The notes: generated by a model not told the origin, from the letters alone. Counted from the stretch's first letter, positions 2,876 to 18,070 are shown. The stretch: 64,000 nt of DNA from an uncultured delta proteobacterium (GCA_963796685.1 CAWCMR010000013.1:192001-256000), one strand, 5' to 3'. A program made the numbers and translations.

Positions 2876-3040
2876 GGCGGCGCTTACCCGGATAGGATAG
2901 CGCGCTTAGGGCTTCCATGACACCCTCCCCTGAGTGCCTCTTGGCTATCCCATCGGGATGGTTGCCAGGCCAAGGGGCAGTCTGGGAACACCCGACGGTA
3001 GGACTTGCGGCCGAATCCGTGGCAAGATAGGACGTATTCA

Positions 3041-3436: not shown

Positions 3437-4362
3437 CAAAGCGTGGCCAGAGGCGGTTCATCCACCGCCCGCGCATCAATCCCACACCGTCTGTTCCGGT
3501 GGTGCGTATCTTCGACACATTCACGCTGGAGTCTCTTCGCAAAGGGCCTCGGATCATGGCCGAGGTCCTACGGTTTGCGTGGGACCACTACTCCGCGCTT
3601 CAGCATCAGCGTTCGGCGGTTGCCGAGGCAATTGCCGAGGCGCTCGCCCGTGCCAGATCCGGCCCGTTTCCGTTCAGAGCATGGATGCGAGTCGTTGACT
3701 ACCGGTATACCAATCACCCTTTGTCAGTCGTCGGGAGCGTCAAGTCGATAGCGGGTGGCCGGTTCAACATCGGCGACCTCGATCCGATCAAGTTTGCGCC
3801 GTTCCCCGCGCTTTATCTGGCATCGGACCATGCGACGGTCTTGGCGGAGACACTTGGGCAACCTGGCGACTCCGACGGGCTCACTCAAAACGAACTGGCG
3901 CTACGAAGCAAGCGGTCCTATTCGTGCGTGGCCGTGAACGGGCTGATGGAGACGGTGATCGACCTCTCGAAGATGGACCGACTTCGCCAATTCGTGGACG
4001 TCATTGGGAAGTTCAAGCTGTCGGTCTCCATCCGCGAGGATGCGAAACGCCTCGGGATTCCGGGTGCAATTGTCTCGTCCATTGCTGGCCTGGAGACGGC
4101 TCTATTTGCGTTGCACTGGCGGGCTATGCCGATGCAGATGGGCGTTCCCGCATCATCCCAAATATTCGGACAGCTTGTTGCCCGTGCTGGAATCGAGGGC
4201 ATCGTCTTTCCGTCGGTAAGATCGGACTCGGGTGGAACGTCGCTGGCCGTGTTCCCCCAAAACCTTCAGGGCGATTCTTTCGTCGAGCTTGCCGATCCTG
4301 CGGCGCCCGCGACCAAGCACGCTCGTTTGGATGCCAAGACTTGGCGCACCTTTTTGTGCTGA
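3433..4362 (+). CDS. RES-domain toxin (putative NAD+ phosphorylase)
   Basis: WMRV, GGRFN, ALYLA..E, GIVFPSVR motifs; start uncertain (GTG 3433 or ATG 3556). Confidence 0.85.
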   Translation: MTKRGQRRFIHRPRINPTPSVPVVRIFDTFTLESLRKGPRIMAEVLRFAWDHYSALQHQRSAVAEAIAEALARARSGPFPFRAWMRVVDYRYTNHPLSVVGSVKSIAGGRFNIGDLDPIKFAPFPALYLASDHATVLAETLGQPGDSDGLTQNELALRSKRSYSCVAVNGLMETVIDLSKMDRLRQFVDVIGKFKLSVSIREDAKRLGIPGAIVSSIAGLETALFALHWRAMPMQMGVPASSQIFGQLVARAGIEGIVFPSVRSDSGGTSLAVFPQNLQGDSFVELADPAAPATKHARLDAKTWRTFLC

Positions 4363-4375
4363 CGGACTAGTCTAG

Positions 4376-4627
4376 TCAGCCATCGGCCAGTTCTCGCCTG
4401 AGCGAGCTCATGTCCACCGCGAAGGCATCCACATCCTCGCGGGCCAGGGCCAGGATGAAATCCGTGCGGCCAAGCCCAGCCAGCTGCGCGGCGCGCTCTT
4501 GCGAGATGAGGCCGCGCGAATACCAGTGGACGGCGGCGGCGAGACGCAGATCGCCGGCCATTTCGTCGGGAGACCGACGAAGCGCGGAGAAGGTTTCCTC
4601 GGGCAGTTGCACTTGAACCGTGACCAT
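4376..4627 (-). CDS. UPF0175 family antitoxin; orphan (no PIN partner)
   Basis: LAAAVHWYSRGLISQERAAQLAGLGRTDF motif. Confidence 0.85.
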   Translation of the reverse strand: MVTVQVQLPEETFSALRRSPDEMAGDLRLAAAVHWYSRGLISQERAAQLAGLGRTDFILALAREDVDAFAVDMSSLRRELADG

Positions 4628-4642
4628 GAGCTTGCGACAAGC

Positions 4643-4702
4643 CTACCACGACAACGCGTCTGGCGTTTCGGCGCGGGCATCGGGGTGGTAGCGGACCTTC
4701 AC
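4643..4702 (-). pseudogene. N-terminal remnant of a ParE/RelE toxin
   Basis: GTGA-coupled 19-codon ORF VKVRYHPDARAETPDALSW-stop. Confidence 0.6.
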
Positions 4703-4917
4703 CGGCCAGCCCGTGCGCGAAGACGTCTGGCGGCCTCGGCGTGGACTTCATCAGCATCGACCAAGGCCACCTTGCCATCCGCCACATCGCGCGCGCGGCG
4801 ATCAATCTCGGCCGCCCAAAGGGCGTCCGCGTTGGGATCGGCGTCTTCGGCGTCCAGGCTGGCGATGAGATCATCCGCCGCTGGCCTGGTCTTGGTCGAC
4901 CGCGCGCCCGGCATCAT
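4699..4917 (-). CDS. Addiction-module antitoxin component (TIGR02574-like), N-terminus probably altered
   Basis: LIASLD..DALWAAEIDRRARDVADGKV motif. Confidence 0.75.
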   Translation of the reverse strand: MMPGARSTKTRPAADDLIASLDAEDADPNADALWAAEIDRRARDVADGKVALVDADEVHAEAARRLRARAGR

Positions 4918-5417
4918 GGCAACTCTTCGTCGGCCAAACGAAGCACGGCCGCGCGTGTTTGCGCGTCCAGCCTGAATCGAAGAGCCGCGAGGCGATCGAG
5001 AACTGGGGCGACCGCGTCCAGAAAACCTTGCTGTTTGGCTTTCACCAAAACACCGGCTGTGCCGGTGAAGCGAACACCCAGATGGCCAGCGTAGCGGCGG
5101 GCGAGGCCGTCGTCGATGATCAGGATCGCGCCTGGCGTTTCTGCTGCCAGCGCAAGGGCTTCACGTTCTCCTGGCCCAAGGTCGCTCACTGCGGGCAAGA
5201 TGGCCATGCTCTGTGGGCGCACGATGCGCACCCAGGGAAAAGCGGTCGGGTCCGGAAGATCGAATCCCAGCGCGCGGCCAGCTGCCAGTTCCTGGACCAC
5301 GGCCGGTGGCACCAGGATCTCCTCGTACAGCTTCACCAGCAGATCGGTCAGGCCACACTGATGAAGGTACTGGAGCGGCGACGTGTTCGCGATCGTGACC
5401 GGACGCGGGTCAGGCAT
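4914..5417 (-). CDS. DUF3368 PIN-domain toxin
   Basis: IANTSPL, VPPAVVQEL, LGPGEREAL, IIDDGLAR, GTAGVLVKAKQQG. Confidence 0.9.
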   Translation of the reverse strand: MPDPRPVTIANTSPLQYLHQCGLTDLLVKLYEEILVPPAVVQELAAGRALGFDLPDPTAFPWVRIVRPQSMAILPAVSDLGPGEREALALAAETPGAILIIDDGLARRYAGHLGVRFTGTAGVLVKAKQQGFLDAVAPVLDRLAALRFRLDAQTRAAVLRLADEELP

Positions 5418-5658
5418 TCCGGACGTCTCGGGCAATTTCTTCGTCGGACAGCTTGAACACGGGAACGTCGTAGTCGGCCAGCTTGGTCATGAAGACTGGC
5501 TTGGGCAGGCCCGCTAGTTGAGCGGCGGCGCCAGCCGCGAGGCGCCCCATCTCGTATAGCTTCACAGCCGCGACCAACACGACCTCGCGCTCGGCGGCGT
5601 CCGCGCTCAGCTTCAACGCCAGCAGCGTTTCATCTGGGATGTTCAGGTGCCCGACCAT
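5410..5658 (-). CDS. UPF0175 family antitoxin
   Basis: AAVKLYEMGRLAAGAAAQLAGLPKPVF; overlaps the DUF3368 start. Confidence 0.88.
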   Translation of the reverse strand: MVGHLNIPDETLLALKLSADAAEREVVLVAAVKLYEMGRLAAGAAAQLAGLPKPVFMTKLADYDVPVFKLSDEEIARDVRNA

Positions 5659-5945
5659 GAAATGAACCTTACCACAGGGCTGATCCCTGAGCCGAGGAGG
5701 ATGCCATCGCGTCCCAAACACACCCCATCGGGTCGTTTGCCACGGCCGAAATTTTTGCCACGCTTTTGCCATGAAGTCCGACTTTGTGGTGGTCTTCTGC
5801 GGATAGACGCGGCTCGAAACGGAACGACCCCACCGAGCTGAACACCTGAAAACCACTCAGAAAACCAGCGCAAGGCCGCGTCGCGCCTGGGTCTTTTCTA
5901 AATGGCTTGCAGGTGTTTCAAGTCCCGATGGGTCACAAGGATTCG

Positions 5946-6035
5946 TCGGCCAGCTCTCGCCTGAGCGAACCTTCACCGGCTAGCCCGCGCGCGAAGACGT
6001 CTAGCGGCCTCGGCGTGGACTTCGTCAGCATCGAC
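5946..6035 (-). pseudogene. Internally deleted duplicate of 4383-4761 (3' ends of two antitoxin genes)
   Basis: 5946-5968 matches 4383-4405 at 22/23; 5969-6035 matches 4695-4761 at 63/67. Confidence 0.85.
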
Positions 6036-6160
6036 GCTGCCACGGCGCCGTTCAGGTCACGGATCAAGGGGGCCCAGTCCTTGGCGCTGTGCCGGGGACG
6101 CCCACCGAATCGCTAGAAACAAGGCGAAATACGCAGCGTTTCCGCGTCCTGGTCCCCGAA

Positions 6161-6182
6161 GTTACCCCCAAAGTTACCCCCA
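6161..6182 (+). repeat. Putative integrase arm-type sites, left end
   Basis: GTTACCCCCA at 6161 and 6173; same pair at 17848/17860. Confidence 0.8.
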
Positions 6183-6217
6183 GAGGCGCGGCCCTAGAGT
6201 GGTTCGATTCCCGTTCT

Positions 6218-6502
6218 TCACTCGTCGCCGCGACCGCGCTTGGGCACGAGGGTAGCAAGGTCGAAGCGCAAAGTTCTGCCGACACGCTGGCAAGGAATCG
6301 AGCCGTCCTTCACTCGGCGCCACAGCGTCGCGCGCGAGATGCCGAGGATCCTCATTGCATCTTCCGGCCTTCCAAGCGCCGACGGCGCAGCGGCGCGAAG
6401 CTGCTCGACGGCGATGATCAGCCGGTCCACCCGTACAGCCAGCGCGGCGACAGCTCGCCTTGTGGCGCGGACCTCGGCAAGCGTGGCCGTGGGACGGCTC
6501 AC
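6218..6502 (-). CDS. Excisionase-like helix-turn-helix protein
   Basis: EDAMRILGISRATLWRRVKDGSIPCQRVGRTLRF; GTGA-coupled; next to att. Confidence 0.8.
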   Translation of the reverse strand: MSRPTATLAEVRATRRAVAALAVRVDRLIIAVEQLRAAAPSALGRPEDAMRILGISRATLWRRVKDGSIPCQRVGRTLRFDLATLVPKRGRGDE

Positions 6503-7077
6503 GGAAAGAGGACACCCCGGTGGACATCGCGGACCCATTCGGCGGCCGCTCTAGGTGCTTCGTCGCGAAACTCGCGTGTTCCAAGCCCCCAGAGCAAGTC
6601 GATGCTCCGAAGGTAGGTCAAAACGCGTTCGTCCTCGTCGCTGCTACCAAGTATGCACTGGTGTTCGCCACCGATGTGCCTGTCAAAGCTGCCCAACTCG
6701 ACCGGCCAAGAATCGCCGTCGATGGACTTGCTGAATTCCCCAAGACGTCGTTGGTAGTCAACGATATCGGATGCGAAGTAGAACCTTGCCGCGACCCTAA
6801 CGGTCAATGTGCCTTTGTGTTCACCGATGAACTGAACCGGCGAAAGCAAGCCCGCCATGTACAGCTTCTCGATTACTTCGAACACTCGGACGTCGTGGTC
6901 CGAGTCCCACAAGACCGCGAGCGTGTGCACATGGGGAAGTTCCAGCCTCTCCCGCATCACGTCCAGCCATTCGGCACAGCGAACGATGCTGTAGTGGGTG
7001 TCCCACCCCAGGCCGACCGCCTCGGGCTGGTCGTAGATTGTCGAAAGGAGCGTGGAATACTGACGTGTTTCGCGCAT
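6499..7077 (-). CDS. Hypothetical cargo protein (192 aa)
   Basis: GGAGG RBS before ATG 7077; globular-looking composition; no recognised family. Confidence 0.7.
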   Translation of the reverse strand: MRETRQYSTLLSTIYDQPEAVGLGWDTHYSIVRCAEWLDVMRERLELPHVHTLAVLWDSDHDVRVFEVIEKLYMAGLLSPVQFIGEHKGTLTVRVAARFYFASDIVDYQRRLGEFSKSIDGDSWPVELGSFDRHIGGEHQCILGSSDEDERVLTYLRSIDLLWGLGTREFRDEAPRAAAEWVRDVHRGVLFP

Positions 7078-7358
7078 TGGTTTCCTCCGGTTTCGTAGGA
7101 AGTCGTGGGTTCCCCCACTGCGCCGACGCTTTCGGCATCGACGCGACTTGGAGCAGGATAGCATCGTGTCCGGTCGCCCGTCGAATGTATCGGCGAGCTC
7201 GGCCGGGGTTGCGCGGTCCAACCATCGGCCAACCACGCCGAAACGGGGTGGCCCACGGTTCGTCATGATCTGCGGGTGACGCCAGCGGATGGCAGCGGGG
7301 TCACTGATCACGTTTTGGAGATTGGGGAGATCGTGGATCTACTCGGGCCGGAGAACGC

Positions 7359-7859
7359 TCACCGCGAGATCAGAGCTTGGGTTCTTGCCTTTTCTGCGCG
7401 CTCTTTGCGTCGGCTTGAAGTGCCGGTGATGAATGTTATGACTATTCCCGCAACGCCCGTGCCGCCTATCGCTGCACCCGCCGCATCATGCCCATTTAGG
7501 ACCGCATACGTTCCACAGGCGATCATGGCCAAGGTGAGTACGAATCCGCAGACAACGCCAGCGGTTGCGCGAAAGTTCTCACCGCCGAGCGCAGTCGTCT
7601 CCATGGCCATCCTGTGCTCACCCTGCCTATTCGCCATGTCGACAATTTTTGCCGCGAGGCCTGGAACTACCTTGTCATATCCAGCAAGGACGTCTGGATG
7701 GGGGATAGGGCCGGAGAAGCTCGTTTGCGTGTGCGAAAGTGATACTGCCGCAGCGGCGGCGTTCCCGTTGCCTTGCAGAGCGATTGGGGATTGCCTAGCG
7801 ATCTGATGGTGACGGCCCATGGGTAGCCGACGGCGCTTTCTGCTTTTCCTCTTCCCCAT
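7359..7859 (-). CDS. DUF2335 family membrane protein
   Basis: FSGPIPHPDVLAGYDKVVPGLAAKIVDMA..HR followed by two hydrophobic helices. Confidence 0.85.
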   Translation of the reverse strand: MGKRKSRKRRRLPMGRHHQIARQSPIALQGNGNAAAAAVSLSHTQTSFSGPIPHPDVLAGYDKVVPGLAAKIVDMANRQGEHRMAMETTALGGENFRATAGVVCGFVLTLAMIACGTYAVLNGHDAAGAAIGGTGVAGIVITFITGTSSRRKERAEKARTQALISR

Positions 7860-8049
7860 GCACCGCATCTATCGCATTACACAAGTCTTGTCCAACTGCG
7901 CACCAGTCCGACGCCAACGCACGAGCGTCCGCTGTAGGGCCATCCGGCGAACGATTAAATTCGGTGAGCGTTCCACCCAAATCAAGAATCCTGGCCATTC
8001 CTTCAAAGAAGGATGGCCGCGCAAAGAGAAGGTCACTCATCTGAGTCAT
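7795..8049 (-). CDS. Small hypothetical protein, partner of DUF2335 gene
   Basis: PSFFEGMARILDLGG..DARALASDWCAVGQDL; overlaps DUF2335 ORF. Confidence 0.7.
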   Translation of the reverse strand: MTQMSDLLFARPSFFEGMARILDLGGTLTEFNRSPDGPTADARALASDWCAVGQDLCNAIDAVHGEEEKQKAPSATHGPSPSDR

Positions 8050-8260
8050 TCGTACAGATCCCATTTTACACTATGATCACCAGGATCAACTCTTCCGATT
8101 GGATGGCTCAAAACGTCTCTCGGTTCACGTGTGAATGCACTTCCTAGCACATCATCGCTGGAATCAAGAGAACCTTGAACATTAGCTGCAAAGCGCGTCA
8201 TCCACCTTACCACCCCTGCACCGTCCCTTTCGCCACTTTGGCCACGCCCCGCCACGCCCT

Positions 8261-8781
8261 TCACCCCTTCGTCCGGCTCGGCGACGTTGCCCACGGTTGA
8301 TCAACGATTTCGGCCGCCGGCTCTCGAGCAGTCTTCAGGGCCTCCGCTGTACATTGGAACGTCCTACGTACGAAAGCCCGATCGCCGCCTGCACAACCGG
8401 CAACGGCGCGCCGCCGGGAAACTGATCGGCGATATCCAGGGCGCAGCTCTTGTCCGCGGGCACTTCGGCCGGTTCGCGGTCGGGAAAGTTCAGCTTGATC
8501 GATCCTCGCGGGCTCACGTCGAGGTAGTTGTTGAATCGACAAGAAACCCACGGGCACGGCCTGGGGCCGTCTATGCAGTCACCGCGGGTCTTGGGCCGCT
8601 CCACGTCGCTGGGGTATTCCACCACCTCGCCAAACCATCGGTCGCGCAAGGCCCGCTGGGAATCCGGCGCTGCGGGGTGTTGCTGGTGGTAGGCAGCCAT
8701 CCCGGCTTGACCATGCCGCGTGACCACGCCGATTCCATCGCGCCACGATTCGAGCTGCCGAAGGTTTATCGATTTCCGCAC
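8261..8781 (-). CDS. Cys-rich protein with C-terminal sigma70 region-4-like HTH; probable frameshift near 8365
   Basis: RPKTRGDC..GPRPCPWVSC..YLDV..GSIKLNFP..CALDIAD; last helix (RTFQCTAEALK) lies in another frame. Confidence 0.65.
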
Positions 8782-8787
8782 GAGGCC

Positions 8788-9081
8788 TCACGCGGTCGGC
8801 GCTTCGAGTAGTGCCACCAACCTGGGTGGGAGCCACGCGGGCACGCAGTCGAGATGGTCCAGGACAGATCGCAGCCGATTGAGCACGCGATTGACTTGCA
8901 CGTGCGATGGCTTCCCGGCTGCCACAAAAGCGGCTAGGTTTGCATCGAGTGAGCCTTGTGTGCGTCCAAGCGTCTCGATTGCCCAACAGTCGAACGCCAG
9001 CACGGCCAGCGTGAGGTTGCCCCGCACGTCCAGCAGCACGGGGGATTCCTCGCCGCGAAGGTCTTGCTCGGCCGCGGTCAC
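8788..9081 (-). CDS. Hypothetical protein
   Basis: 97 aa, GTGA-coupled within the minus-strand gene string. Confidence 0.55.
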   Translation of the reverse strand: MTAAEQDLRGEESPVLLDVRGNLTLAVLAFDCWAIETLGRTQGSLDANLAAFVAAGKPSHVQVNRVLNRLRSVLDHLDCVPAWLPPRLVALLEAPTA

Positions 9082-9440
9082 GTTCCAGCCTCGGTTGAGA
9101 TCAGCTTGACCGCGGACACCACGGCGCGGGCAAACGTCCGGGCATCCTTCCCGCCCAAAGACCAGCAGATGTCGGTGCTACTGCGGACTGGCCACCATCG
9201 ACCGGCCGTGTCCTGATGCCACCGACGAATCAGAATCCTAGCTGGCCGCCCAGCGGTAGGTGGTTGGCTGGTGATTCGCAACTCGCTGCCGTTCTTGATT
9301 GCGATCGCTCCGTGGAGCCGGTGGGCCGCCTCCGGGCCGCGGTCGGTTGCTGGGCGCGGGCGTGCCGGCGTGGGCGCTGGCGTCTCGGCTTCGCCAAAGC
9401 CATGAAAGGCGAGGCGGGCGGATGTGTTGGGCGAGTTCAT
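9078..9440 (-). CDS. Hypothetical protein with PC4-like ssDNA-binding pattern
   Basis: ATGA-coupled; ELRIT..ILIRRWHQDTAGRWWP. Confidence 0.55.
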   Translation of the reverse strand: MNSPNTSARLAFHGFGEAETPAPTPARPRPATDRGPEAAHRLHGAIAIKNGSELRITSQPPTAGRPARILIRRWHQDTAGRWWPVRSSTDICWSLGGKDARTFARAVVSAVKLISTEAGT

Positions 9441-10033
9441 AGGCCCTTCGCCTCGCGGGCCAAGGACGCCTGCGCCTCCTCCCCGTAGATCGAGCCCAGT
9501 TCCGGATCCCCGAGAAGCAGGTGCAGCGCATCGTCGATGAAGCCTTCGATGTGATTCACGTCGAGATCGGATAGGTCGCGTTTGCGGGCGATGACTTTTG
9601 CCCAAACGAGTGACTCCCGCGCCGAGCGCAACCAGCGCCCGAAACTCTCAAGCTCTGCGTTCAGCCGGCGGGATTTCTTGGCTCTGGCGATGTCGCCCAG
9701 CACCTCGCGATGCCAGGCTAGACACTTGTTGGCCTCGGCGATGAGCGATGCCCGATCCGTGCGGCTGAGTTCGCCGAGTTCGGCCGCTACCGCCGCCGAA
9801 TGCCGCTCGTATTCCGTCTCGGGCGCCGGCGCGCCCCCATCTGGCGGACACCATTTTCCCGACGGGATCCACGAACGCATCGCGAGGTCAGGATTGATGA
9901 TGGTGATGTGGCTGCGCTTGCCGGGTTTCCCGGTGATGCGCACCGCTGCCGCGGGAATCAGGCCGTCGCGGACCGCGCGCGCAACGGTTCTCCGGGAGCA
10001 TCCGCGTAGCTTCGCAAATTCCTCTGTTGTCAT
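9437..10033 (-). CDS. Terminase small subunit-like protein (Nu1-type winged HTH)
   Basis: AAGGAG RBS; MTTEEFAKLRGCSRRTVARAVRDGLI..INPDLAMRSW then helical C-terminus. Confidence 0.65.
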   Translation of the reverse strand: MTTEEFAKLRGCSRRTVARAVRDGLIPAAAVRITGKPGKRSHITIINPDLAMRSWIPSGKWCPPDGGAPAPETEYERHSAAVAAELGELSRTDRASLIAEANKCLAWHREVLGDIARAKKSRRLNAELESFGRWLRSARESLVWAKVIARKRDLSDLDVNHIEGFIDDALHLLLGDPELGSIYGEEAQASLAREAKGL

Positions 10034-10050
10034 AGTGTGTTTCTCCTTAC

Positions 10051-10146
10051 GTGAGACAAGATGGGACATTCTTTTTCGGTGTTGTGCAGACACGTGGCGG
10101 GGCTCCTAGGCGCCGCGTCGTCCAAAACGGCCCAAAGGAGGTACCC
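10051..10146 (-). other. Candidate cos packaging site
   Basis: Minus strand GGGTACCT + 23 nt ending ACG + CGGCGCCTAGGA; TGRGACA repeats at 10052 and 10062; directly upstream of terS-like gene. Confidence 0.4.
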
Positions 10147-10159
10147 CCGTCCGGGCCCG

Positions 10160-10384
10160 TCATTGCCGCTTGCCGAGCCTTCGATCGATGCTCCAGCAGA
10201 GCCACGCCGACCTCACCACCTCCACGCCACACTTGGCACTCAGCCCCACGCCAACCAGGGCAAGCGCCGCCAACCTTGCGGCGGCGGACGCCATCGCCCA
10301 CAGTGCCACCGCCAGGCGCTTCAGCGCAGCCACCAGACCGCCGCGCTTCCCCTTGGCGACAGGGGCGGGCGCCTCACTACTCAT
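10160..10384 (-). CDS. Small basic/hydrophobic hypothetical protein
   Basis: 74 aa, overlaps upstream stop; long Ala/Leu/Val stretch. Confidence 0.5.
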   Translation of the reverse strand: MSSEAPAPVAKGKRGGLVAALKRLAVALWAMASAAARLAALALVGVGLSAKCGVEVVRSAWLCWSIDRRLGKRQ

Positions 10385-10814
10385 CCCTGGCCTTCGCTGT
10401 GCACGCGTGCGCTTCCGCCAACGCCTGTTCATCGAAGGCCTGCATCCTCGCGATGAAGGCATCCTCCTCGCTCCTGTTGTCGATGGGAGTGGGCCGGGCC
10501 TTGGCCATGACCGCTCGAAACTCGGCGTCGGGCCCGACCGCCGCCGCCGCCTTCGACGTGCCGGCAAGCAGCTCGGCCGCGCTCTCGATGGTCATGCCCG
10601 GCATGGCCGCCAGCCTGATGGCCAAGGGTCGCCGTCCCACTGCCTCCGCGTGCCCAACGATGCCTAGGATGCGTTCGCGCTCGACGGTGGCGGCCTCGGC
10701 TCGCGCCTTCGCCTTCGCGCTTTCCCGCGCCTCTGTGAGAGCCTCAGCCCTTGCCTCTGCCTGGATCTGCGCGACCACGTCGGGATACTCGGCCCGCAAC
10801 TGTTCGAGCGTCAC
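10377..10814 (-). CDS. Stand-alone Nu3-like capsid scaffold protein (145 aa)
   Basis: GGAGGT RBS; TLEQLRAEYPDVVAQIQAEA..ERERILGI..EAVGR..LAAMPGMTIESAAELLA resembles the scaffold tail of S49/ClpP head proteases. Confidence 0.65.
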   Translation of the reverse strand: MTLEQLRAEYPDVVAQIQAEARAEALTEARESAKAKARAEAATVERERILGIVGHAEAVGRRPLAIRLAAMPGMTIESAAELLAGTSKAAAAVGPDAEFRAVMAKARPTPIDNRSEEDAFIARMQAFDEQALAEAHACTAKARDE

Positions 10815-11017
10815 AATGCCACCTCCGTGGCCGTCGTGGTAAGCAGCTCGGCCGCAACCTCGACGGTCATTTCCGGCATGGCAGCGAGTCGGATAGCGGC
10901 TGCGCGCCACCCCTTGGCTGCGGGATGCGAGACGATCGCGAGGATGCGTTCACGCTCGGCCGTCGCCGCTCTCTCGTAGTTGCGCTCGAAGATCATTTGC
11001 CGCAGAGACGGGGTCAC
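10811..11017 (-). CDS. Short paralog of the Nu3-like scaffold core (68 aa)
   Basis: ERERILAIVSHPAAKGWRAAAIRLAAMPEMTVEVAAELL; DNA-level similarity to 10567-10690. Confidence 0.7.
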   Translation of the reverse strand: MTPSLRQMIFERNYERAATAERERILAIVSHPAAKGWRAAAIRLAAMPEMTVEVAAELLTTTATEVAL

Positions 11018-11370
11018 GACGCCACCACGCTGTCGTAGGACTTCATCCGCCGCAAAAAGGCCTCGGTTTCGGGATCGTCATCCTGGGCCGTGCCGGTCGG
11101 CGTTTCGCCTGCATCGAGTCTGCGCATGCGTTCGAGAAAAGCCGACTCCTCGGCCGCCTCGCTGGTTGCCGGCATCGCACGCGCGACAGGTGCGCTCGGC
11201 GTGGTGATGCGTGCGCTTGCCGTGGGCGTGGACACCGTTGTGGGCGCGGTGGCCGCGCATTCAGCGCTGCAAAAGCCCGACGTCCGCACTCCGAATCGGC
11301 CGCACGTGCATCGCGTTTGCGCGCGTTCCACGACGGCGGCCAGGGTCTCTTCGCCTTGCGTGTTCATCAC
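11014..11370 (-). CDS. Cys-motif protein with two copies of the scaffold C-terminal motif
   Basis: CTC..CSAEC, Thr/Ala linker, ESAFLERMRRLD and TEAFLRRMKSYD (cf. EDAFIARMQAFD in 10377-10814). Confidence 0.65.
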   Translation of the reverse strand: MMNTQGEETLAAVVERAQTRCTCGRFGVRTSGFCSAECAATAPTTVSTPTASARITTPSAPVARAMPATSEAAEESAFLERMRRLDAGETPTGTAQDDDPETEAFLRRMKSYDSVVAS

Positions 11371-11921
11371 GCACCCGCCTTGCGCGAGGACTTCGCCGGC
11401 TGCTGTGCTGCCAGCGCCGCTTCGAGAGCGGCCACTCGCTCGGCCAGCTTCGCCGGGTTCAGCTCGGCGGGGAGGCATTCAACACAGCACAACTCGCCCC
11501 GCGCGTTGAATCCCACAGCCGGGCGCCCAGCTTTGTAGACAGTGTCCGGATGCCTGACGCAAAACATCGGATCGATAGGAAGCTCGGCTTCCCGCTCGTG
11601 CCGGTCGCGTATCTTTGCCAGCTCCGCGTCGATTTCTGGCCGCCTTCGCGCGGACTCCGCTCGGCGCAAATCTTCCTCCGCTCGCCGAACGCACATCGTG
11701 CACCGCCGCTCCCCCACCGTTCCGTCGGCGGCGGTCACTTGGTGGGTTACGTCGCTCGGCAGATGACAGCGATCGCAGGTGTTCGGCATCTTTTCGAGGG
11801 GTATCGGAGGGCCATCGGTTGGCCCGGCCTCGGATGCCCCCCTTTCGGTGATCGGTGGTTGCAGATAGTTGGATTGCATGTCGGTTCCTTTCGGTTTGTT
11901 GGTTCGGTCGAAAATCCCCAC
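11367..11921 (-). CDS. Zinc-finger/coiled-coil hypothetical protein
   Basis: CDRC..CTMC, CVRH..CVEC; start uncertain. Confidence 0.6.
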   Translation of the reverse strand: MGIFDRTNKPKGTDMQSNYLQPPITERGASEAGPTDGPPIPLEKMPNTCDRCHLPSDVTHQVTAADGTVGERRCTMCVRRAEEDLRRAESARRRPEIDAELAKIRDRHEREAELPIDPMFCVRHPDTVYKAGRPAVGFNARGELCCVECLPAELNPAKLAERVAALEAALAAQQPAKSSRKAGA

Positions 11922-12036
11922 CGCCTAGCCTGTGCATCCGCCTGAAAGCAGAAGAGCGGTTGCATCCGGGCGACGATTCCCGACCGGGCGCATGGTCCCG
12001 GCAAGCGAAGTGGTGGGGTAAACCTTGAGCGGGAGA

Positions 12037-12225
12037 TCATCGGGCTGGCTCCCCTTGCGGCTGCACCAACTCGTGCTGGCGGGGCGTTTCCTGCGTCGAT
12101 GGCGTGCTGGTGCGAGCAATCGCGCGCCAACAGCGTGAGCACAGCAGTTTTCGAGCAACCGCTACGAAGTGCATCTCGGGCGTGGTCAGGTGGCACACGT
12201 CGCATGCATCGCGAGTCGCGGTCAT
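12037..12225 (-). CDS. Small zinc-ribbon protein
   Basis: CDVC..CSRC, 62 aa. Confidence 0.55.
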   Translation of the reverse strand: MTATRDACDVCHLTTPEMHFVAVARKLLCSRCWRAIARTSTPSTQETPRQHELVQPQGEPAR

Positions 12226-12629
12226 GGTGTGGCCTCACGCAGGCACTTGCGACAAACCCTGCCGGAGGTCAGGCCAGGAAGAACGGTTTCGGCTTTGGCG
12301 TCGGTGCCTCCGCAGTCGAGGCACAGCCGTTCGCTTTTCGCGTGGTCCGCCGCGGCCAGTGCCTTGAGCACCGCGAGTTCCCAGGCTCGCAACCGGATCT
12401 CGAGTTCGGCCAGGTCGCCCACACCACGCTGGCAGCGACTAGCCTCTCGACCACACGCAGCCATCGCGCGGGCCACGGCGGGGAGGCGCTCTACCGTAGG
12501 CCACCGATCGTCAAGATCGGGATGCTCCCCGGCTAGGCGGGCCCATGATTCCGCCCAGAGCGCCGCGACGACGTCAGGGGTGCCGGTGCCCAGGGCGTGA
12601 GTGGTGACCAAAGTGCAGGCGGCGGTCAT
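12222..12629 (-). CDS. Hypothetical protein with C-terminal zinc ribbon
   Basis: CLDC..CRKC; ATGA overlap at its start. Confidence 0.6.
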   Translation of the reverse strand: MTAACTLVTTHALGTGTPDVVAALWAESWARLAGEHPDLDDRWPTVERLPAVARAMAACGREASRCQRGVGDLAELEIRLRAWELAVLKALAAADHAKSERLCLDCGGTDAKAETVLPGLTSGRVCRKCLREATP

Positions 12630-12805
12630 TGCAACCCCGCTGGCTTGGGCACCATGAAGATCGGCGGGCGGCCATCTTCGCCAGGACGAAGCCCACGAAG
12701 GTCAACGAGTCGCCCGCGCCAGTCGTAGCCCCAACCGATGGGCGCCATGGGCGTGGCCGTGGTGTCGGTCGTGGGCGCGGCCGCGGTGAACAGCGGGGTC
12801 GTCAT
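12626..12805 (-). CDS. 59-aa hypothetical protein (below ORF-track cutoff)
   Basis: MTTPLFTAAAP..PAGLQ; ATGA overlaps at both ends. Confidence 0.55.
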   Translation of the reverse strand: MTTPLFTAAAPTTDTTATPMAPIGWGYDWRGRLVDLRGLRPGEDGRPPIFMVPKPAGLQ

Positions 12806-14148
12806 CGATCAGACTCCGGATCAGTGCCATCCGTTGCCGACAACCACGTGGTCAGCTCGGGGGCCCATCTGCACCTCGCCGCCCCTGTCCGTCCCTCGCG
12901 GTTTTTCGCCACGATGATCCGATCCCCATCGGCGCCATGGGTAAGAAACAACACAATGTCGGACTCCTGCTCGAAGGATCCCGTCTCGCGTAAGTCGGAC
13001 AGCATCGGGTCACCACCGCGCTTTTCAATCTCGCGCGAGAGCATCGCCACAAGGAGCACCACACACCCAAGCTCCTTGGCCAAGGTCTTCATGGCGACGG
13101 GCACCTTTGCCGCCTCTTGCTCGCGGGTGTCGCCCCTCTCGCGTCCCACTTGCACCCGTTGTGCGTAGTCGAGCACGATGAGCGCGCGCTTGTCGTCTTC
13201 CTTGCCACTGCGGAGAAATCGCGGGGCCACATGGCGGGCGTGCCACCGCCGGGCCTCGCCGGTGATCTGACCGAGCCGCACGGCCCGGTCGTTCACCCAC
13301 AGCAACGACGAATCGAACCGACCGGATGAGGCTCCAATCTTGCCCCATTCCGCTTTGTCCACACTCCCGACCTTGAGCTTGTGCGAGTTGATACCGGCGT
13401 CGCCGGAAAGCCAGCGCCGACCAAGTCGCTTGAGCATCATTTCAACCGAGAAAAACGCGGTCGGTACTCCGTGCATCCCACAGTACGCAGCGACGTTGCC
13501 CACGAATGCCGACTTGCCGACACCGGGACGAGCGGAGACGGTCACAAGATCGCCGGGCTCGAATCCTTCTGCGACATGGTCAAGCGTCGGAATGCCGGCG
13601 AAGACCCGCGGAACCAACTCGCCCCGCTGCTGTTTCTCGACATCGTCAGCAGCCTCGCGGATTGCCGTAGATACGTGGACCATGCCGCAGTCGCGCGAGA
13701 GATTTTCAAGCTCGGCCGTGCCGTCGCGCATGGCCTGGATCTGCTCTTCCCAGGGTTGGCCACCGTAGGCGAGCGCCAGCGTGTTGGTGCAGGTCTCGAT
13801 CAGTTTTCTACTGGCCGCCAGCTCCCGGACAATCTGCGCGTGGTGGCGCACCTGCTGCGGGATGGCCGCATCGCTCGCGCAAGCCATCGCCCACTCGTGC
13901 CAGCTCGGCGCGAAGTGCGGCTCGGCACCGGCCGCCTTGATGGCGCTGCTGAGTGAGATGGGATCGGTCGGAAGACCCTTGGAAACGGCGGCACTGGCGG
14001 CAGCCCAGGCCTCGCGATGGCACGGCACAAAGAACTCGTCCGGGCGTAGGCCGTCCGATTCCACGATCGCCGCATCGCCGTAGACCAGCTCGGATCCGAT
14101 GACGGCCCGCTCGGCCTCGACGTTGTGTGGTGGCGTCCGGTCGGTCAT
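12802..14148 (-). CDS. dnaB: DnaB-family replicative helicase (element-encoded)
   Basis: PPHNVEAERAVIG, Walker A ARPGVGKS, VLDYAQ, LSDLRETGSFEQESD, IVAKNREG. Confidence 0.93.
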   Translation of the reverse strand: MTDRTPPHNVEAERAVIGSELVYGDAAIVESDGLRPDEFFVPCHREAWAAASAAVSKGLPTDPISLSSAIKAAGAEPHFAPSWHEWAMACASDAAIPQQVRHHAQIVRELAASRKLIETCTNTLALAYGGQPWEEQIQAMRDGTAELENLSRDCGMVHVSTAIREAADDVEKQQRGELVPRVFAGIPTLDHVAEGFEPGDLVTVSARPGVGKSAFVGNVAAYCGMHGVPTAFFSVEMMLKRLGRRWLSGDAGINSHKLKVGSVDKAEWGKIGASSGRFDSSLLWVNDRAVRLGQITGEARRWHARHVAPRFLRSGKEDDKRALIVLDYAQRVQVGRERGDTREQEAAKVPVAMKTLAKELGCVVLLVAMLSREIEKRGGDPMLSDLRETGSFEQESDIVLFLTHGADGDRIIVAKNREGRTGAARCRWAPELTTWLSATDGTDPESDR

Positions 14149-14957
14149 GTGCCTACCTCGCCGAGTCCGGGCAGGTCTGGCCACGTGTATGGCGCCGGCT
14201 GGCCGGGCCTGGCTTGCGGGCGCGCAGCGGCCGTGCGCTCGTCTGTCCATCGCTGCTGATGCAGGTAGCTCGCCAGGTAGGGCACGTGCGCGGGATATTC
14301 GCGATCCGTCGCCTGCCAGTGCGGAACCTGCCAGGCTAGGGCCGAGGTCACGGCATCGGCTAGTGCTGCCTCGCCGCCGGCATAGTCGCGCGCCTGTCGC
14401 GTCCAGCTCACGGCGGCTTTGGCTTTCGCGTCTCGCCGGGGATAGATAGCCCAGATGCGGGCAAATGCCTCTGACACCTCAGCTCGACGAGCGCGCGCAC
14501 GCCCAGGAGCGGCAGCGGATGGGCATGTATCCTGATTTGGGGAAGGGGATCCGGATCGGGAAGGGGAACGGGAACGGGACGCTGCCACTGTCGCGCTATT
14601 CGACTGTCCATTAGACGCGCTACTAGCGCCGCTATTGGACGCTGCCCATTCTCGCTTGCGCTTCCGCTCGGCCTCGATGTGGGCCCGGCTCGGCTGGTAC
14701 TCGAGGTAGTCGTGGATCTGGTAGCCGCCCTCGACCATCTCCCACAAGCCGATGCGCACCAGCTCGGCCGCAGTGCCGGAGGCGTCGACTGTCCGCGCGT
14801 AGGCCGCGACCACCGGCAGATCGGCAGTGACGATGACGCCATCCGATTCGGCTTGCGCGGCGTAGGCCAGGCCCGCGAAGTACATCAGGCGGGCGGCATC
14901 GCTGCACCGGAACTTGCGATGCAGGAAGATCCTGTCGTCGATTTTGACCCAGCTCAC
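14145..14957 (-). CDS. Phage-type replication initiator
   Basis: SWVKIDD..H.KF N-terminus, YQIHDYLEYQP, Ser/Pro linker, FARIWAIYPR..YLHQQRWTDE; coupled to dnaB. Confidence 0.8.
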   Translation of the reverse strand: MSWVKIDDRIFLHRKFRCSDAARLMYFAGLAYAAQAESDGVIVTADLPVVAAYARTVDASGTAAELVRIGLWEMVEGGYQIHDYLEYQPSRAHIEAERKRKREWAASNSGASSASNGQSNSATVAASRSRSPSRSGSPSPNQDTCPSAAAPGRARARRAEVSEAFARIWAIYPRRDAKAKAAVSWTRQARDYAGGEAALADAVTSALAWQVPHWQATDREYPAHVPYLASYLHQQRWTDERTAAARPQARPGQPAPYTWPDLPGLGEVGT

Positions 14958-15232
14958 GGCCCGATTACCTCGTCGGCCAGGCGCGCGGCCTCGAGCACGT
15001 CGGCGTCGGTGACGGCGGGTCGCGCCCCCCTCGCTGCGTCGGCGATGCGCTCGCGGATCCAGTTTTCGATCTGGTCGCTCGGCCACGCCACACACCTGGC
15101 ACCCAGCTTGATCGGGGCCGGGAACGTGCCAGCCTGGATCGCGGCGTAGATGGCAGTCCTGCGCAGTCCCACGCGTGCGATCACGCCTGGCAATCTCAGC
15201 AGGCAGATCGGAGCGGGCGGTGCGGCGGTCAT
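14954..15232 (-). CDS. alpA: AlpA family regulator
   Basis: LLRLPGVIARVGLRRTAIY..GTFPAPIKLGARCVAWPSDQIENWI. Confidence 0.92.
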   Translation of the reverse strand: MTAAPPAPICLLRLPGVIARVGLRRTAIYAAIQAGTFPAPIKLGARCVAWPSDQIENWIRERIADAARGARPAVTDADVLEAARLADEVIGP

Positions 15233-15450
15233 CGCTGCACCGGAGCGAGGTCTGCGAGCTTTTGCGCCGCGAGCGCCAGGGTGCCCGCTCGCACGCCGAG
15301 CGACCCCCGGATCCTGGTGAGTGACGCCTCGGACACCCCGAGTAGTTTGGCGGTGCGGACAGTCCCTTCTCGCTCGACGAGCTCGCGCACCGCCCGGACA
15401 AATAGCGGGCCAGGTTGGACGAGGCCGCCCGAAAGAAAATGCTCATGCAT
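15229..15450 (-). CDS. Small HTH protein
   Basis: GTVRTAKLLGVSEASLTRI; ATGA-coupled to alpA. Confidence 0.6.
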   Translation of the reverse strand: MHEHFLSGGLVQPGPLFVRAVRELVEREGTVRTAKLLGVSEASLTRIRGSLGVRAGTLALAAQKLADLAPVQR

Positions 15451-15537
15451 ACAGAAAACTCTGGCATGGCACCTCAGCGGCCGACGCGACAATTGGACCA
15501 CCTGTCGGCGTCTATTGTCGCTGGCCCGTCGCTGTGA

Positions 15538-16467
15538 CTACTTGCCGGGCTTGCGCTGGCGTCGCTTCTTTTTGCTGGTCTTGCGCTGCCTGGTCTCTTC
15601 GGCGGCCTTGCGCTCGCGTTTCTTGGCCAGCGTCTTTTGGAGCGTGACGCTTGTGTAATCGTCGCCCACCAGGTCTAGGTTCTTGAGGGCCTTGACGACG
15701 TTGTCGTTATCCTTCTCGCCGCGCTTCTTCAACTCGGCCGCAACAAGCGTCGACACTGCATCGTGCGCGCCACGCTTCGGTGGCGAGGGGAATTTGAGCG
15801 ATAGCCCTTCATCCGTCCATGTGCTCGCGAAGCCGAGAAACTGGACGATCTCTTGAGACGGAAGCGTGCCCCATTGGAACGGGTGCAGATCGTCGATGGC
15901 TCGCGCGGCTTTGAGCGCATCTGTGAGGGCCGCCCTAAGTTTGCCGAGTTCGGCCTTGATCTTCAGTGAGTCCTGACCGTGCTTGAGGTTCGCATTGACC
16001 GAGTCGAGCGCCAGGGGAGCGCGCGCGGCTTTCGGATTCTTCAGGTACGAAGGATTGCACCCCGCATACGCCTGTTCGAGCTGGGGGAAGGTCCTTTTCT
16101 TGCCATCCTTGTCCTTGCCATTGAACCACTGATGGATTCGTTGACATAGTTCGAGCCCCTTCGATCTCTGGTCCGGTGCCTTGCTCGTCGGTGCCTTGCT
16201 CGGCTCCGGCAACGCAGGCAGTCCTTGCTTGGCCCGCATCTCCCGGATCACGTCCTCGGCCGACGGCTTCGGCTTTGCCGGCGTCGTGGCCTTCTTCCTG
16301 GCCAACGCCGCTTCGACCACCGCCCTACGCTGGGCCGGGTTCTTGGGCTGACCGACCTCCGGTGCCGTCGGCGCCGAGTTCGCCTCGCCTTGAGGCGCGC
16401 GCTTCGGTTGGCGGGGCTTCGGTTGGGTTGTCTTCGTCACGTGCATTTCCGTCTGCACTTCCTTCAA
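15538..16467 (-). CDS. Lys/Arg-rich hypothetical protein
   Basis: ~300 aa ORF downstream of integrase; no recognised family; start uncertain. Confidence 0.65.
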   Translation of the reverse strand: MKEVQTEMHVTKTTQPKPRQPKRAPQGEANSAPTAPEVGQPKNPAQRRAVVEAALARKKATTPAKPKPSAEDVIREMRAKQGLPALPEPSKAPTSKAPDQRSKGLELCQRIHQWFNGKDKDGKKRTFPQLEQAYAGCNPSYLKNPKAARAPLALDSVNANLKHGQDSLKIKAELGKLRAALTDALKAARAIDDLHPFQWGTLPSQEIVQFLGFASTWTDEGLSLKFPSPPKRGAHDAVSTLVAAELKKRGEKDNDNVVKALKNLDLVGDDYTSVTLQKTLAKKRERKAAEETRQRKTSKKKRRQRKPGK

Positions 16468-16545
16468 AAAAAGACCGTGGGCTGGGCCAGGGGAAATGCG
16501 GCCTGGCCCTCGACCGGGGGATCAGTCCCAATCGCTGCCCACGGT
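16466..16545 (-). terminator. Branched stem-loop followed by T7, after the integrase
   Basis: Outer ACCGTGGGC/GCCCACGGT, two inner hairpins, A7 at 16466-16472 on + strand. Confidence 0.6.
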
Positions 16546-16551
16546 GGAAAA

Positions 16552-17772
16552 CTAGATCGTCAACACTGCCCCCTCGGTCTGCTTGGGAGATTCACCGGCG
16601 GCGAGCTCGCCCAAGTAGTCCGCCCATCGTTGCATCATCGCCTTGCGCTCGGGAAGGAAGGCGGTGCGGTTGTAGGCGCGGCCGTTGGGATCGCGGACTG
16701 CGTGCGCAAGCTGCGCTTCGATCAGGTCCACGCGTTCGCCGAGGACCTCGTCAAGCAGGGTTCGGGCGGTCGCGCGGAACCCGTGGCCGCTCGCCGTGGC
16801 CTTGGCGATATCCAGGCGGCGAAGGGCGGCGTTGACCGCGGCGTCGGACATCGGCCGATCCCTGCTTCTCTGCGATGGGAACACGTAGGGGCACAAGCCA
16901 GTCAGTGGGTGCAGCTCGCGCAAGATGGCGACCGCCTGCTTGGCCAGGGGCACGATGTGCGGCGTCCCGGTCTTGCTGGCGGTGAAGCGCCACTCGGCCT
17001 TGGGAAGGTCGATGTCAGCCCACTTGGCCGCACGCAGTTCGCCGGGGCGGACGAAGAGCAGGGGGGCCAGCTTCAGCGCAGCGGCCACGATGGGCGTGCC
17101 CTCGTCGTACTTCCAGATCATGCGCAACAGGTCTGCCAGCTTCGCGGGCTCGGTTACCGCGGCCATGTGCTTGGCCTTCACCGGCGGCAAGGCGCCACGT
17201 AGGTCTGCCGTCGGGTCGCGTTCGGCGCGGGCGGTGGCGATGGCGTACCGGAAGATCTGCGAAAGGGCAATGCGCGTGCGGTGCGCGCTTTCTAGTCGCC
17301 CTCTGGCCTCGATACGTCGGAGCACGGCCAGCACTTCGGGGGGCGCGATCTGGCCGATGGGCCGCGACCCTATCCACGGGAATGCATCGTTCGTGAGCCT
17401 CGCGCGAACGCCGCGCGCATGGGACGGCACCCACGTACCTTCAAACCGCTTCAGCCACTCCTCGCCGACGGTTTGAAGGGTGTTGGCGCCTGCCTCCGCC
17501 GACGCAACCTTCGCTGCCTTCCGGTGCGCGCTGGGGTCGATACCGTCGCGAACCTGCTTGCGGGTTGCTTCCCGCTTCTCCCTGGCCTCGGCCAGCGTCG
17601 TCTCGGGATACGTGCCGAGCGATAGCAGCTTCTCTTTGCCGTCGAAGCGGTACTTGAGGCGCCACCACTTGCCGCCAGCCGGTGCAACCTCCAGATACAA
17701 CCCGCCGGTGTCGTAGAGGCGTGTCCTCTTTTCTGCCGGCTTGGCTTTCTTGCAGGCGGTGTCGGTCAGCAT
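16552..17772 (-). CDS. int: P4-like tyrosine integrase with N-terminal arm-binding domain
   Basis: LYDTGGLYLEV..KWWRLKYRF, VRPGE, HGFR, QLAH, RAYNR; adjacent to tRNA-Leu. Confidence 0.96.
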   Translation of the reverse strand: MLTDTACKKAKPAEKRTRLYDTGGLYLEVAPAGGKWWRLKYRFDGKEKLLSLGTYPETTLAEAREKREATRKQVRDGIDPSAHRKAAKVASAEAGANTLQTVGEEWLKRFEGTWVPSHARGVRARLTNDAFPWIGSRPIGQIAPPEVLAVLRRIEARGRLESAHRTRIALSQIFRYAIATARAERDPTADLRGALPPVKAKHMAAVTEPAKLADLLRMIWKYDEGTPIVAAALKLAPLLFVRPGELRAAKWADIDLPKAEWRFTASKTGTPHIVPLAKQAVAILRELHPLTGLCPYVFPSQRSRDRPMSDAAVNAALRRLDIAKATASGHGFRATARTLLDEVLGERVDLIEAQLAHAVRDPNGRAYNRTAFLPERKAMMQRWADYLGELAAGESPKQTEGAVLTI

Positions 17773-17819
17773 CTGGGGATCCTTTCGGCCCGGGAATCGA
17801 ACCCGCTAAGTTGGGGCTT

Positions 17820-17869
17820 TGGGGGTAACTGGTTTTGGAGTCGGCGAGTTACCCCCAAGGTTACCCCCA
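17820..17869. repeat. Putative integrase arm-type sites, right end
   Basis: TGGGGGTAAC 17820-17829 (inverted), GTTACCCCCA at 17848 and 17860. Confidence 0.8.
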
Positions 17870-17985
17870 CACGTTCACGGCTGTCAACAGACGCAGCCGG
17901 ACTCTAGCGGAGCCAAAGCGGCACTAAATAGCTGATTTCGCTAGATGCCGTGGACTCTCGCGGACAGTGACGGATTACCGCAGAG

Positions 17986-18070
17986 TGCCGGGGACGGGAC
18001 TCGAACCCGTACGCCGCTTTCGCGACAGCGGATTTTAAGTCCGCGGCGTCTACCATTTCGCCACCCCGGC
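17986..18070 (-). tRNA. tRNA-Leu (TAA); integration target
   Basis: GCCGGGG acceptor, GCGGA-CTTAAAA-TCCGC, long variable arm, GTTCGAGTC; CCA not encoded. Confidence 0.96.

Follow-up and report, generated by a model that had tools for sequence, protein, structure and literature searches.

The closest described systems are the phage-inducible chromosomal islands (PICIs) of Gram-negative bacteria. In excerpts from the descriptions of EcCICFT073 and PmCI172 (PMC6092414, PMC6739421), these islands have an integrase-alpA-replication-packaging order read in one direction, lack structural and lysis genes, bear a cos site of their own, exploit a lambda-type helper and redirect packaging with a DNA-binding protein like a small terminase (TerS), for which Rpp is the precedent (PMC6739421). 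An 11,896-bp element in a 64,000-nucleotide stretch of DNA from an uncultured delta proteobacterium (GCA_963796685.1, CAWCMR010000013.1:192001-256000; hereafter the window, from whose first letter all positions are counted) resembles them on each point, its own TerS presumably playing the corresponding role. Set against the same excerpts, it differs in having a replicase of Rep and DnaB rather than a primase-Rep, a full-length homologue of lambda Nu1 where EcCICFT073 is described as having no TerS homologue and using Rpp, a head module derived from a scaffold rather than a capsid-protein homologue, and a host outside the Gammaproteobacteria. We regard it with good confidence as a cos-type, PICI-like satellite parasitising phages with lambda-type heads and contractile tails; its scaffold, cos and TerS are probably carried so that element DNA gets packed into phage shells. 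What is new is the cos site, the helper class, a set of Nu3-derived, protease-less scaffolds and a sister element that keeps the module. In the full-text literature, mostly open-access and with supplements excluded, we found no description of a Myxococcota phage satellite or of a Nu3-derived satellite scaffold; SatelliteFinder supplementary tables might list Myxococcota matches.

The evidence that carries this reading lies in the middle of the element:

10377..10814, minus strand: 145-amino-acid (aa) protease-less Nu3-type scaffold, whose start coincides with the start of the phage scaffold domain
10811..11017, minus strand: 68-aa protein that copies part of the Nu3 core domain and has no counterpart in the sister element
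11014..11367, minus strand: 117-aa protein with a four-Cys N-terminus, a flexible linker and two copies of the scaffold C-terminal helix (residues 72-85 and 99-112)
10085..10146, minus strand: cos region, with a predicted 12-nt cohesive end at 10102-10113 and an upstream conserved box at about 10137-10146
9437..10033, minus strand: divergent Nu1-family TerS, 198 aa (hhalign probability 96.7%, E 4e-10, 164 columns)

The scaffold-like genes, rightly recognised as such in the original prediction, match phrog_53 and phrog_8399; phrog_8940, filed under "tail," is described as a capsid assembly protein and also matches this region. The 145-aa protein aligns with lambda Nu3 (J02459) at 35% over 89 positions (E 4e-8) and with the C-termini of S49 proteases from the helper-class phages described below at 46-56% protein identity, and its gene shares 75% identity over 159 bp with helper-class phage DNA. 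It begins where the phage scaffold domain begins, as lambda nu3 starts within gene C (J02459). The scaffold core domain and a cos site shortly upstream of terS are thus common to lambda and the element, but here the scaffold is a stand-alone gene upstream of cos, without a protease, and its closest relatives belong to uncultured myoviruses rather than to lambdoids. A short helix, first acidic and then hydrophobic, closes the phage scaffolds; the 145-aa protein keeps one such helix and the 117-aa protein has two; with a helix profile built from four phages only, the scores of the two copies in the 117-aa protein were reached by just 7 and 158 of 2,516,731 proteome windows.

The scaffold was found in 2 of 89 genomes of the order and in none of the named-genome scan; among 401 genomes of the phylum, besides its own, there were only two protease genes and two marginal matches, and in its own genome phrog_53 matches the scaffold and two other protease-domain sequences. 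In viral and metagenome scans, the loci annotated (7 of 30, both new ones and 2 of 2) were phages only. Among 1.84 billion representatives searched, more protease-less homologues turned up, and in a quick tree (76 rows from the top 71 matches plus 8 added, rows with fewer than 60 matched positions dropped) 12 protease-less scaffolds, including those of both elements, formed one clade with a Shimodaira-Hasegawa-like approximate likelihood ratio test value of 83 (91 for the inner 11 rows). Among the other 10 there may be fragments of phages, or scaffold genes that phages carry independently. One clade scaffold and one TerS homologue each lie on a 2,089-bp JGI contig, possibly the same one. A predicted complex of the scaffold with a helper-class capsid protein scored 0.38, whereas the best of 3 controls scored 0.00; at least 75% of the contacts were common to the runs, with a partner predicted local distance difference test score (pLDDT) of at least 70. 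The mark it passed lets through 116 solved complexes out of 157 and 2 mismatches out of 215, and passes at or below 0.60 comprised 18 solved complexes and both passing mismatches; we take this as weak support for the view that the scaffold binds the helper-class capsid protein.

The cohesive-end 12-mer sits in non-coding DNA between the scaffold and terS, 80 bp upstream of the latter. Alignment of the non-coding DNA before terS with that of phage contig G031 beats 1000 of 1000 shuffles, and the corresponding DNA of the sister element beats 999 of 1000 against the element and against G031 alike. The cos motif is common to the element, the sister and the first 60 bases of G031; in all three a conserved box lies 23 bases ahead of the 12-mer, a layout that resembles the ends of the lambda record. 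In phage contigs L083 and L250 the sequence opens precisely with the first base of the 12-mer, 437 and 116 bases before terS, with 10/12 and 11/12 identity to element positions 10102-10113; such starts would be expected of contigs that end at a cohesive end, as these probably do. A profile built from only two phages ranks the element site first among 14.6 million genome positions, and the first 19 bases of L250, allowing up to 2 mismatches, find 2 genome sites, one of which is the element cos. A looser cos pattern matched 13 upstream regions among the 55 phage loci listed and missed the closest phages, whose contigs start inside the site.

The terS-like gene of the original prediction has turned out to belong to the Nu1 family, on the hhalign result listed above. 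Its phrog_57 match is limited to the N-terminus (E 5e-4), and pairwise comparison is weak (25%, E 0.01). No significant pairwise match links it to the sister TerS, which is a clear Nu1 type (phrog_57, E 1e-23). Its fold model was poor (pLDDT 60.6, predicted template modelling score 0.31), and fold and PDB sequence searches gave no match.

The sister element, in genome G002, is an 11.8-kb island at tRNA-Arg(ACG) with a 43-bp repeat at its boundaries. Its integrase, at the far end, is unrelated, and its helicase is of the AAA_25 type. Present in unchanged order are the 135-, 170- and 117-aa genes, the scaffold, TerS (followed by a headless copy) and the 120-, 97- and 148-aa genes, with identities of 79% for the scaffold, 86% for the 117-aa protein and 67% for the 170-aa protein. 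Ratios of nonsynonymous to synonymous substitution (dN/dS) between the two, from this single pair and a simple counting method, are 0.59 for the scaffold, 0.31 for the 117-aa gene and 0.38 for the 170-aa gene. The second TerS copy (L017 12740-13141) follows directly after the full TerS and lacks the DNA-binding head, which makes it a candidate dominant-negative or adaptor subunit.

That two independently integrated elements keep one module bears on whether the locus is merely the remnant of a prophage stripped of its structural genes. Rep and DnaB form a prophage-type replication pair, and TerS, cos and scaffold all come from one phage class. In the phages, however, the order is cos-terS-terL-gpW-portal-protease/scaffold, whereas the element reads scaffold-cos-terS, which is not a phage head operon with deletions, and the module recurs with other integration and replication genes in elements of near-equal length (11.9 and 11.8 kb). 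Moreover, the protease-less scaffolds form a clade of their own, and no fragment of the G031 terL, portal, protease domain, capsid or tail was found anywhere in the genome at E 1e-5. The reversed order and the recurrence make a decayed prophage improbable, and the satellite proposed in the original prediction holds. Slightly less probable still is an unpackaged integrative defence or cargo island whose phage-derived genes serve only as anti-phage decoys. The truncated TerS and scaffold copies are decoy-like and a neighbouring islet carries toxin-antitoxin-type genes, but cos lies in packaging position beside a full TerS, and the replication module is complete.

The phages whose S49 proteases give the scaffold its best viral matches are environmental and have TerS, a GpA terminase, gpW, a lambda-type portal, an S49 protease, a decoration protein and a gpE capsid, that is, lambda-type heads, together with the sheath of a contractile tail. 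Since the cos-sharing contigs have such heads and tails, the helper class is likely to consist of phages of this type. Judged by capsid protein (62.6%), the cultured phage nearest to them has a genome of 49,168 bp, and no paper on it was found in our literature search. The original prediction had called for a helper with a GpA terminase and an S49 protease, and that type is indeed present in the closest phages, although none is resident in this genome. By identifying its helper class through sequence alone, the element also points to myxobacteria as possible hosts of one group of uncultured myoviruses.

Several results weigh against this reading. No resident helper was found: GpA ATPase, Terminase_6N and HK97-type capsid families gave no match in the genome, which is 88.6% complete. 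A helper-class capsid protein gave a single 30% match across 401 genomes of the class, and searches of 89 genomes with phage DNA gave, beyond the scaffold genes, short weak matches only, two of which were inspected and lie in coding DNA. None of the 200 spacers in the genome matches the helper-class phages (best 25 of 34 bases). For cos, the margin of the first rank is narrow (14.1 vs 13.6), adding the sister to the profile drops the element site to sixth, and an ungapped scan ties it with 10 other sites; the sister 12-mer matches that of the element in 3 of 12 bases only, although the flanks are kept, and perhaps reflects a different helper. For the scaffold module, hhalign of the 117-aa gene against scaffolds gave only 12% probability (E 0.0024), and the scaffold dN/dS of 0.59 is only mildly purifying. 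Finally, the scaffold-less islands of the genus are equal in size (8.1-12.5 kb, 7 measured), so size gives no pointer to small heads, and the 148-aa gene is frameshifted near 8365-8368.

Three observations belong beside this search. GpA is present in 2 of 89 genomes of the order, which were considered as a host link and set aside: one shares 34% identity with the TerL of the helper class, and the contig bearing the other has a chromosomal look. The spacers lie in two CRISPR arrays (G000:C5:380005-387094 and C9:89585-100538, with 97 and 103 spacers), none of which matched any fetched phage or island. A Baseplate-J-like open reading frame (ORF), recognised by eye, lies beside another island of the genome (L003 17297-18307) and is possibly the trace of an old prophage.

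The frameshift and the absence of a resident helper would also be expected if the satellite, though real, had become inactive in this strain, or if its breaks had arisen from misassembly. Adding to them are the partial duplication of the scaffold, an element TerS far more diverged than that of the sister and an unusual residue in a DnaB motif. We consider this doubtful though worth keeping in view: integrase, AlpA, Rep and DnaB are intact, as are cos and the att sites at both ends, and the divergent TerS has a 58% homologue elsewhere, on the JGI contig. Moreover, a chromosomal gene of housekeeping type in the same window is also frameshifted (1703-1755), which suggests assembly indel errors, so that the break near 8365-8368 is possibly one of them. 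The apparent completeness originally claimed is qualified by the frameshift in the 148-aa gene.

For an active satellite of lambda-head, contractile-tail phages, the following course may be proposed. Helper infection would switch on AlpA, a role suggested by excerpts on EcCICFT073 (PMC6092414) and on PICMI, a phage-inducible chromosomal minimalist island (PMC10803314). The integrase, with AlpA or the Xis-like protein, would excise a circle, which Rep and DnaB would replicate to concatemers. The element TerS would join the helper GpA large terminase, or mix with helper TerS, and packaging would start at the element cos, with TerL, portal, capsid and tail supplied by the helper. The protease-less scaffolds would enter helper procapsid assembly through their C-terminal helix, in competition with helper Nu3. 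The outcome we favour, though tentatively and at rather less than even confidence, is the formation of heads with room for a single 11.9-kb unit but too small for the ~50-kb helper; in these the 117-aa protein, through its two helices, would link one coat subunit to another.

This picture is drawn from Staphylococcus aureus pathogenicity islands (SaPIs). In excerpts on SaPI1 (PMC5644958), the C-terminal helix of CpmB occupies the coat-protein site of the scaffold, the CpmB dimer straddles two capsomers, and small capsids result from CpmB. Like CpmAB of SaPI1 and Rcm of SaPIpT1028, as those sources present them (PMC5644958, PMC12409344), the element has a copy of the helper scaffold's C-terminal coat-binding helix in a protein placed to compete with that scaffold; unlike them, it resides in a diderm host, with a gpC/Nu3 scaffold of lambda type and a cos helper, one of its genes has two helices in a single chain, and no sequence relation is expected. 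The capsid switchers listed in a 2025 paper (PMC12409344), namely Sid, TcaP, CpmAB, Ccm and Rcm, include no lambda-type Nu3 derivative. Conceivably, and with a likelihood we would put below one half, a family of myxobacterial satellites captured the Nu3 frame from a helper gpC protease gene and divided it among specialised proteins (a full scaffold, a core-only copy and a single-chain two-helix staple) that outdo the helper scaffold and drive coat protein of lambda type into small heads. If true, head size in a diderm host would be altered by an internal scaffold that competes with the helper's, a mechanism convergent with SaPI CpmB, and nature would have supplied a tool to find the part of Nu3 that binds gpE and sets head size.

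Heads of unchanged size are about equally probable, and thus not quite an even bet either. Here concatemers of about four units would fill normal heads, and the scaffolds would be an extra chaperone or dominant-negative decoys. Such an outcome is a sub-case of the satellite reading, and the estimate just given is for the outcome itself. Four units come to 4 x 11.9 = 47.6 kb, close to the genome length of that nearest cultured phage (49,168 bp); PICMI packs 8-unit concatemers, according to excerpts of its description (PMC10803314); EcCICFT073 uses lambda heads of normal size (PMC6893505); the 145-aa protein is near full-length Nu3 rather than a minimal mimic; and the sister's headless second TerS looks like a decoy. 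Against this, a dedicated two-helix gene is kept at 86% identity in both elements, and scaffold mimics of SaPIs alter head size in the excerpts cited (PMC5644958, PMC12409344). Genome size cannot decide between small heads and tetramer packaging.

The boundaries of the element are defined by the following features:

17985..18070, minus strand: tRNA-Leu(TAA), the integration target, whose last 12 bases (17985-17996) are one attachment (att) core
6089..6100, minus strand: distal att core, 11,896 bp from the first, with its flank compared with relatives
17820..17869, no strand assigned: three copies of a 10-bp repeat, one of them inverted and two direct, which are probably arm-type sites for the integrase
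6161..6182, no strand assigned: two direct 10-bp repeats, probable arm-type sites of the distal end, from repeat analysis
16552..17772, minus strand: P4-type tyrosine integrase, 406 aa, with Arm-DNA-bind_3, Phage_int_M and catalytic domains

The 12-bp direct repeat and the paired repeats at both ends had been seen in the original prediction, as had the intact P4-type integrase; the insertion at the 3' end of tRNA-Leu(TAA), which one core forms, had been missed. On its own the 12-mer occurs 5 times in the 7.3-Mb genome, and its weight as an att core therefore comes from the adjoining tRNA and integrase. The genome has the doubled 10-bp repeat in 3 places, namely the two element ends and a site beside a related truncated integrase on another contig, and the motif is found near both ends of three sister islands with the same integrase (L020, L021, L027); being doubled at the ends and recurring with this integrase, it probably represents arm-type sites. 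G+C is no marker of the element (60-68% vs ~65% for the genome). Integrase dN/dS against two sister integrases is 0.14-0.16. The myxobacterial host expected earlier finds indirect support, in that the two best of the 80 integrase loci kept (82-83%) lie in Myxococcales records, with the third best at 59%; the host is probably a member of the Myxococcota. The sequence 3' of tRNA-Leu differs in every relative compared, so that none of them offers an empty attB; the one sequencing run listed, with a share of 0.09, showed no excision joint, which does not count as evidence. Gram-negative PICIs are described as using att sites that prophages never occupy (PMC6092414); among 7 tRNA-Leu sites of relatives, not all annotated, small-island genes were noticed in two (L022, L026).

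The remaining genes are these:

15538..16446, minus strand: 302-aa Lys-rich protein without a family match; unrelated genes occupy the same position in sister islands
15229..15450, minus strand: 73-aa small protein, helix-turn-helix (HTH)-like by eye, conserved directly before alpA in sister islands
14954..15232, minus strand: AlpA regulator or recombination directionality factor (PF05930, E 2e-12)
14145..14957, minus strand: phage-type replication initiator (Rep), 270 aa (phrog_2447, E 4e-19; phrog_9474; phrog_3926)
12802..14148, minus strand: DnaB helicase, 448 aa, with Walker A present and one unusual motif residue (Met)
12037..12805, minus strand: three small genes (59, 135 and 62 aa), two with Cys pairs, the first two with homologues in other islands
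11367..11879, minus strand: 170-aa Cys-rich protein, matched only here and in the sister (67%), with 2 matches among 1,381 candidates
10160..10384, minus strand: 74-aa hydrophobic ORF without homology support
8788..9440, minus strand: two genes (120 and 97 aa) common to the sister; the 97-aa family recurs in other islands
8261..8781, minus strand: DNA-binding-type gene (148 aa) whose family is most frequent in Myxococcota; compared with the sister copy it has a frameshift near 8365-8368
6499..8064, minus strand: cargo, namely an 89-aa gene, a DUF2335 membrane protein and a 192-aa protein, with no PADLOC match below E 0.01
6218..6502, minus strand: HTH_17 excisionase-like (Xis-like) gene, whose 60% homologue occupies the sister's alpA position

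All 22 called genes read on the minus strand, away from the integrase end: integrase, 302-aa, 73-aa, AlpA, Rep, DnaB, three small genes, 170-aa, 117-aa, two scaffold-like genes, the 74-aa ORF, TerS, three conserved unknowns, three cargo genes and the Xis-like gene. Co-orientation and ATGA/GTGA overlaps were as originally described, the count having been put at about 21; exact 4-base overlaps join 10 of the 21 junctions, or 12 with sister-supported starts (10814, 6502). The alpA, rep and dnaB assignments also stand, and no primase domain was found among the element genes. In DnaB, the Met falls where Gln is, we presume, expected. Gram-negative PICIs are described with an iteron origin 3' of rep (PMC6092414); here short purine-rich repeats lie inside rep near 14540-14580, and a Rep homologue sits in a prophage-like Rep-DnaC-like region of one relative. 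The 73-aa protein has 43-48% identity to counterparts in L020, L021, L027 and a second island of the same genome. The 89-aa and DUF2335 pair is also present in island L032, and the 192-aa protein has a 72% homologue in G001, with DUF6919 (0.85) as a lead only. Capsid, portal, TerL, tail-structure and lysis families were matched by none of the 24 chosen ORFs and by none of 33 alternative-frame ORFs, as the original prediction had it, and a promoter and terminator scan gave matches at chance level only. A chromosomal homologue of the frameshifted gene (G000:C14:49172-49708; L041 9172-9708), 51% identical over 83 aa, ends in a sigma-70 region 4-like motif; the gene is possibly a host regulator taken up by the satellite.

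With these genes in hand, the element can be placed among known satellites. From the PICI core list, as given in part of PMC10085698, it has the integrase with att sites, the regulator (AlpA, PF05930) and the small terminase, and it lacks tail, holin, portal, TerL and head-tail genes; transcription runs in one direction away from the integrase end, as described for Gram-negative PICIs in the excerpts of PMC6092414. In place of the PICI replicase stands Rep with DnaB (several sister islands have Toprim, Prim-Pol or D5), and in place of the capsid-morphogenesis gene, optional among PICIs (type B) in that same part of PMC10085698, stand Nu3-type scaffolds without a capsid-protein homologue, possibly its functional analogue. 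The replicase and head components are analogues of the PICI ones and are what differs from the plan. Capsid-forming PICIs (cf-PICIs) and PICMI are alike in int, alpA and a replication gene, as far as excerpts go (PMC10085698, PMC10803314), but the element lacks the capsid, portal, TerL and head-tail adaptor and connector of its own that define the former, and differs from the latter in its far larger gene set (22), its tRNA-Leu rather than fis site and its head-related genes, PICMI having no gene for capsid remodelling. From PICMI it is also evident, in the excerpt, that a satellite may rely on virulent phages that are non-resident and may package its DNA as concatemers (PMC10803314). The element is not P4-like, cf-PICI, PICMI or a PICI-like element (PLE), as the original prediction had maintained for P4, cf-PICI and PLE; for PICI, its claim of a differing module set was overstated.

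P4-like satellites are packaged from cos as the element would be, and their markers are Sid, Psu, delta and alpha. The element shares with them and with PLE a P4-type integrase, an AlpA/Vis-like regulator and a size of about 11-12 kb, and does not fit either definition: neither Sid, Psu, alpha primase nor PLE markers (capR, repA, nixI, lidI; Vibrio/ICP1) appear among its PHROGs and Pfam matches. TcaP is an external scaffold. So is Sid (PMC6893505), whereas the element proteins are homologues of internal scaffolds.

Seven other tRNA islands in the genus, of 8.1-12.5 kb, follow an integrase-regulator-primase/helicase plan without a scaffold. Most carry an HTH-type gene that we read as TerS-like (Pfam gives HTH families only). 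Since the genus has at least 7 more tRNA islands (8-12.5 kb) built to a similar plan, satellites look common in it. PICI-like, scaffold-less islands are L001, L003, L038, L020, L021, L022, L027 and L032, the first three in the element's own genome (C13:688-698 kb, C6:38-45 kb and C13:383-394 kb); they have swapped replicases (D5, Toprim-AAA, Prim-Pol) and need a different helper class.

The DNA 3' of tRNA-Glu and tRNA-Leu varies between species of the genus (L019, L022-L026, L035, L036), and in relatives it maps to other contigs of the element's genome. The two tRNA genes are ~150 kb apart in G001 and G010 versus 15 kb here, which suggests rearrangement at island-bearing tRNA genes. A separate islet without an integrase occupies window positions 2621-5938, bounded by a tRNA-Glu 3'-end repeat (2621-2639 and about 5920-5938). 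Its content (2640-5938) comprises Xre/RES, UPF0175 plus DUF3368 PIN-like and addiction-module (toxin-antitoxin-type) genes, and parts of it recur in G001, G004 and G012 and at the distal ends of sister satellites. A 72-bp direct repeat (93%) is found at 4690-4761 and 5964-6035, the second copy in the 150 bp that separate the islet from the element's distal att. Further out, positions 1018-2299 encode a PP2C-like phosphatase with a cyclic-nucleotide-binding-like tail (domains by eye), which appears split by a frameshift near 1703-1755, and positions 915-1020 hold a palindrome-rich repeat of ~80-90 bp with many copies genome-wide, often in 80-bp tandem arrays.

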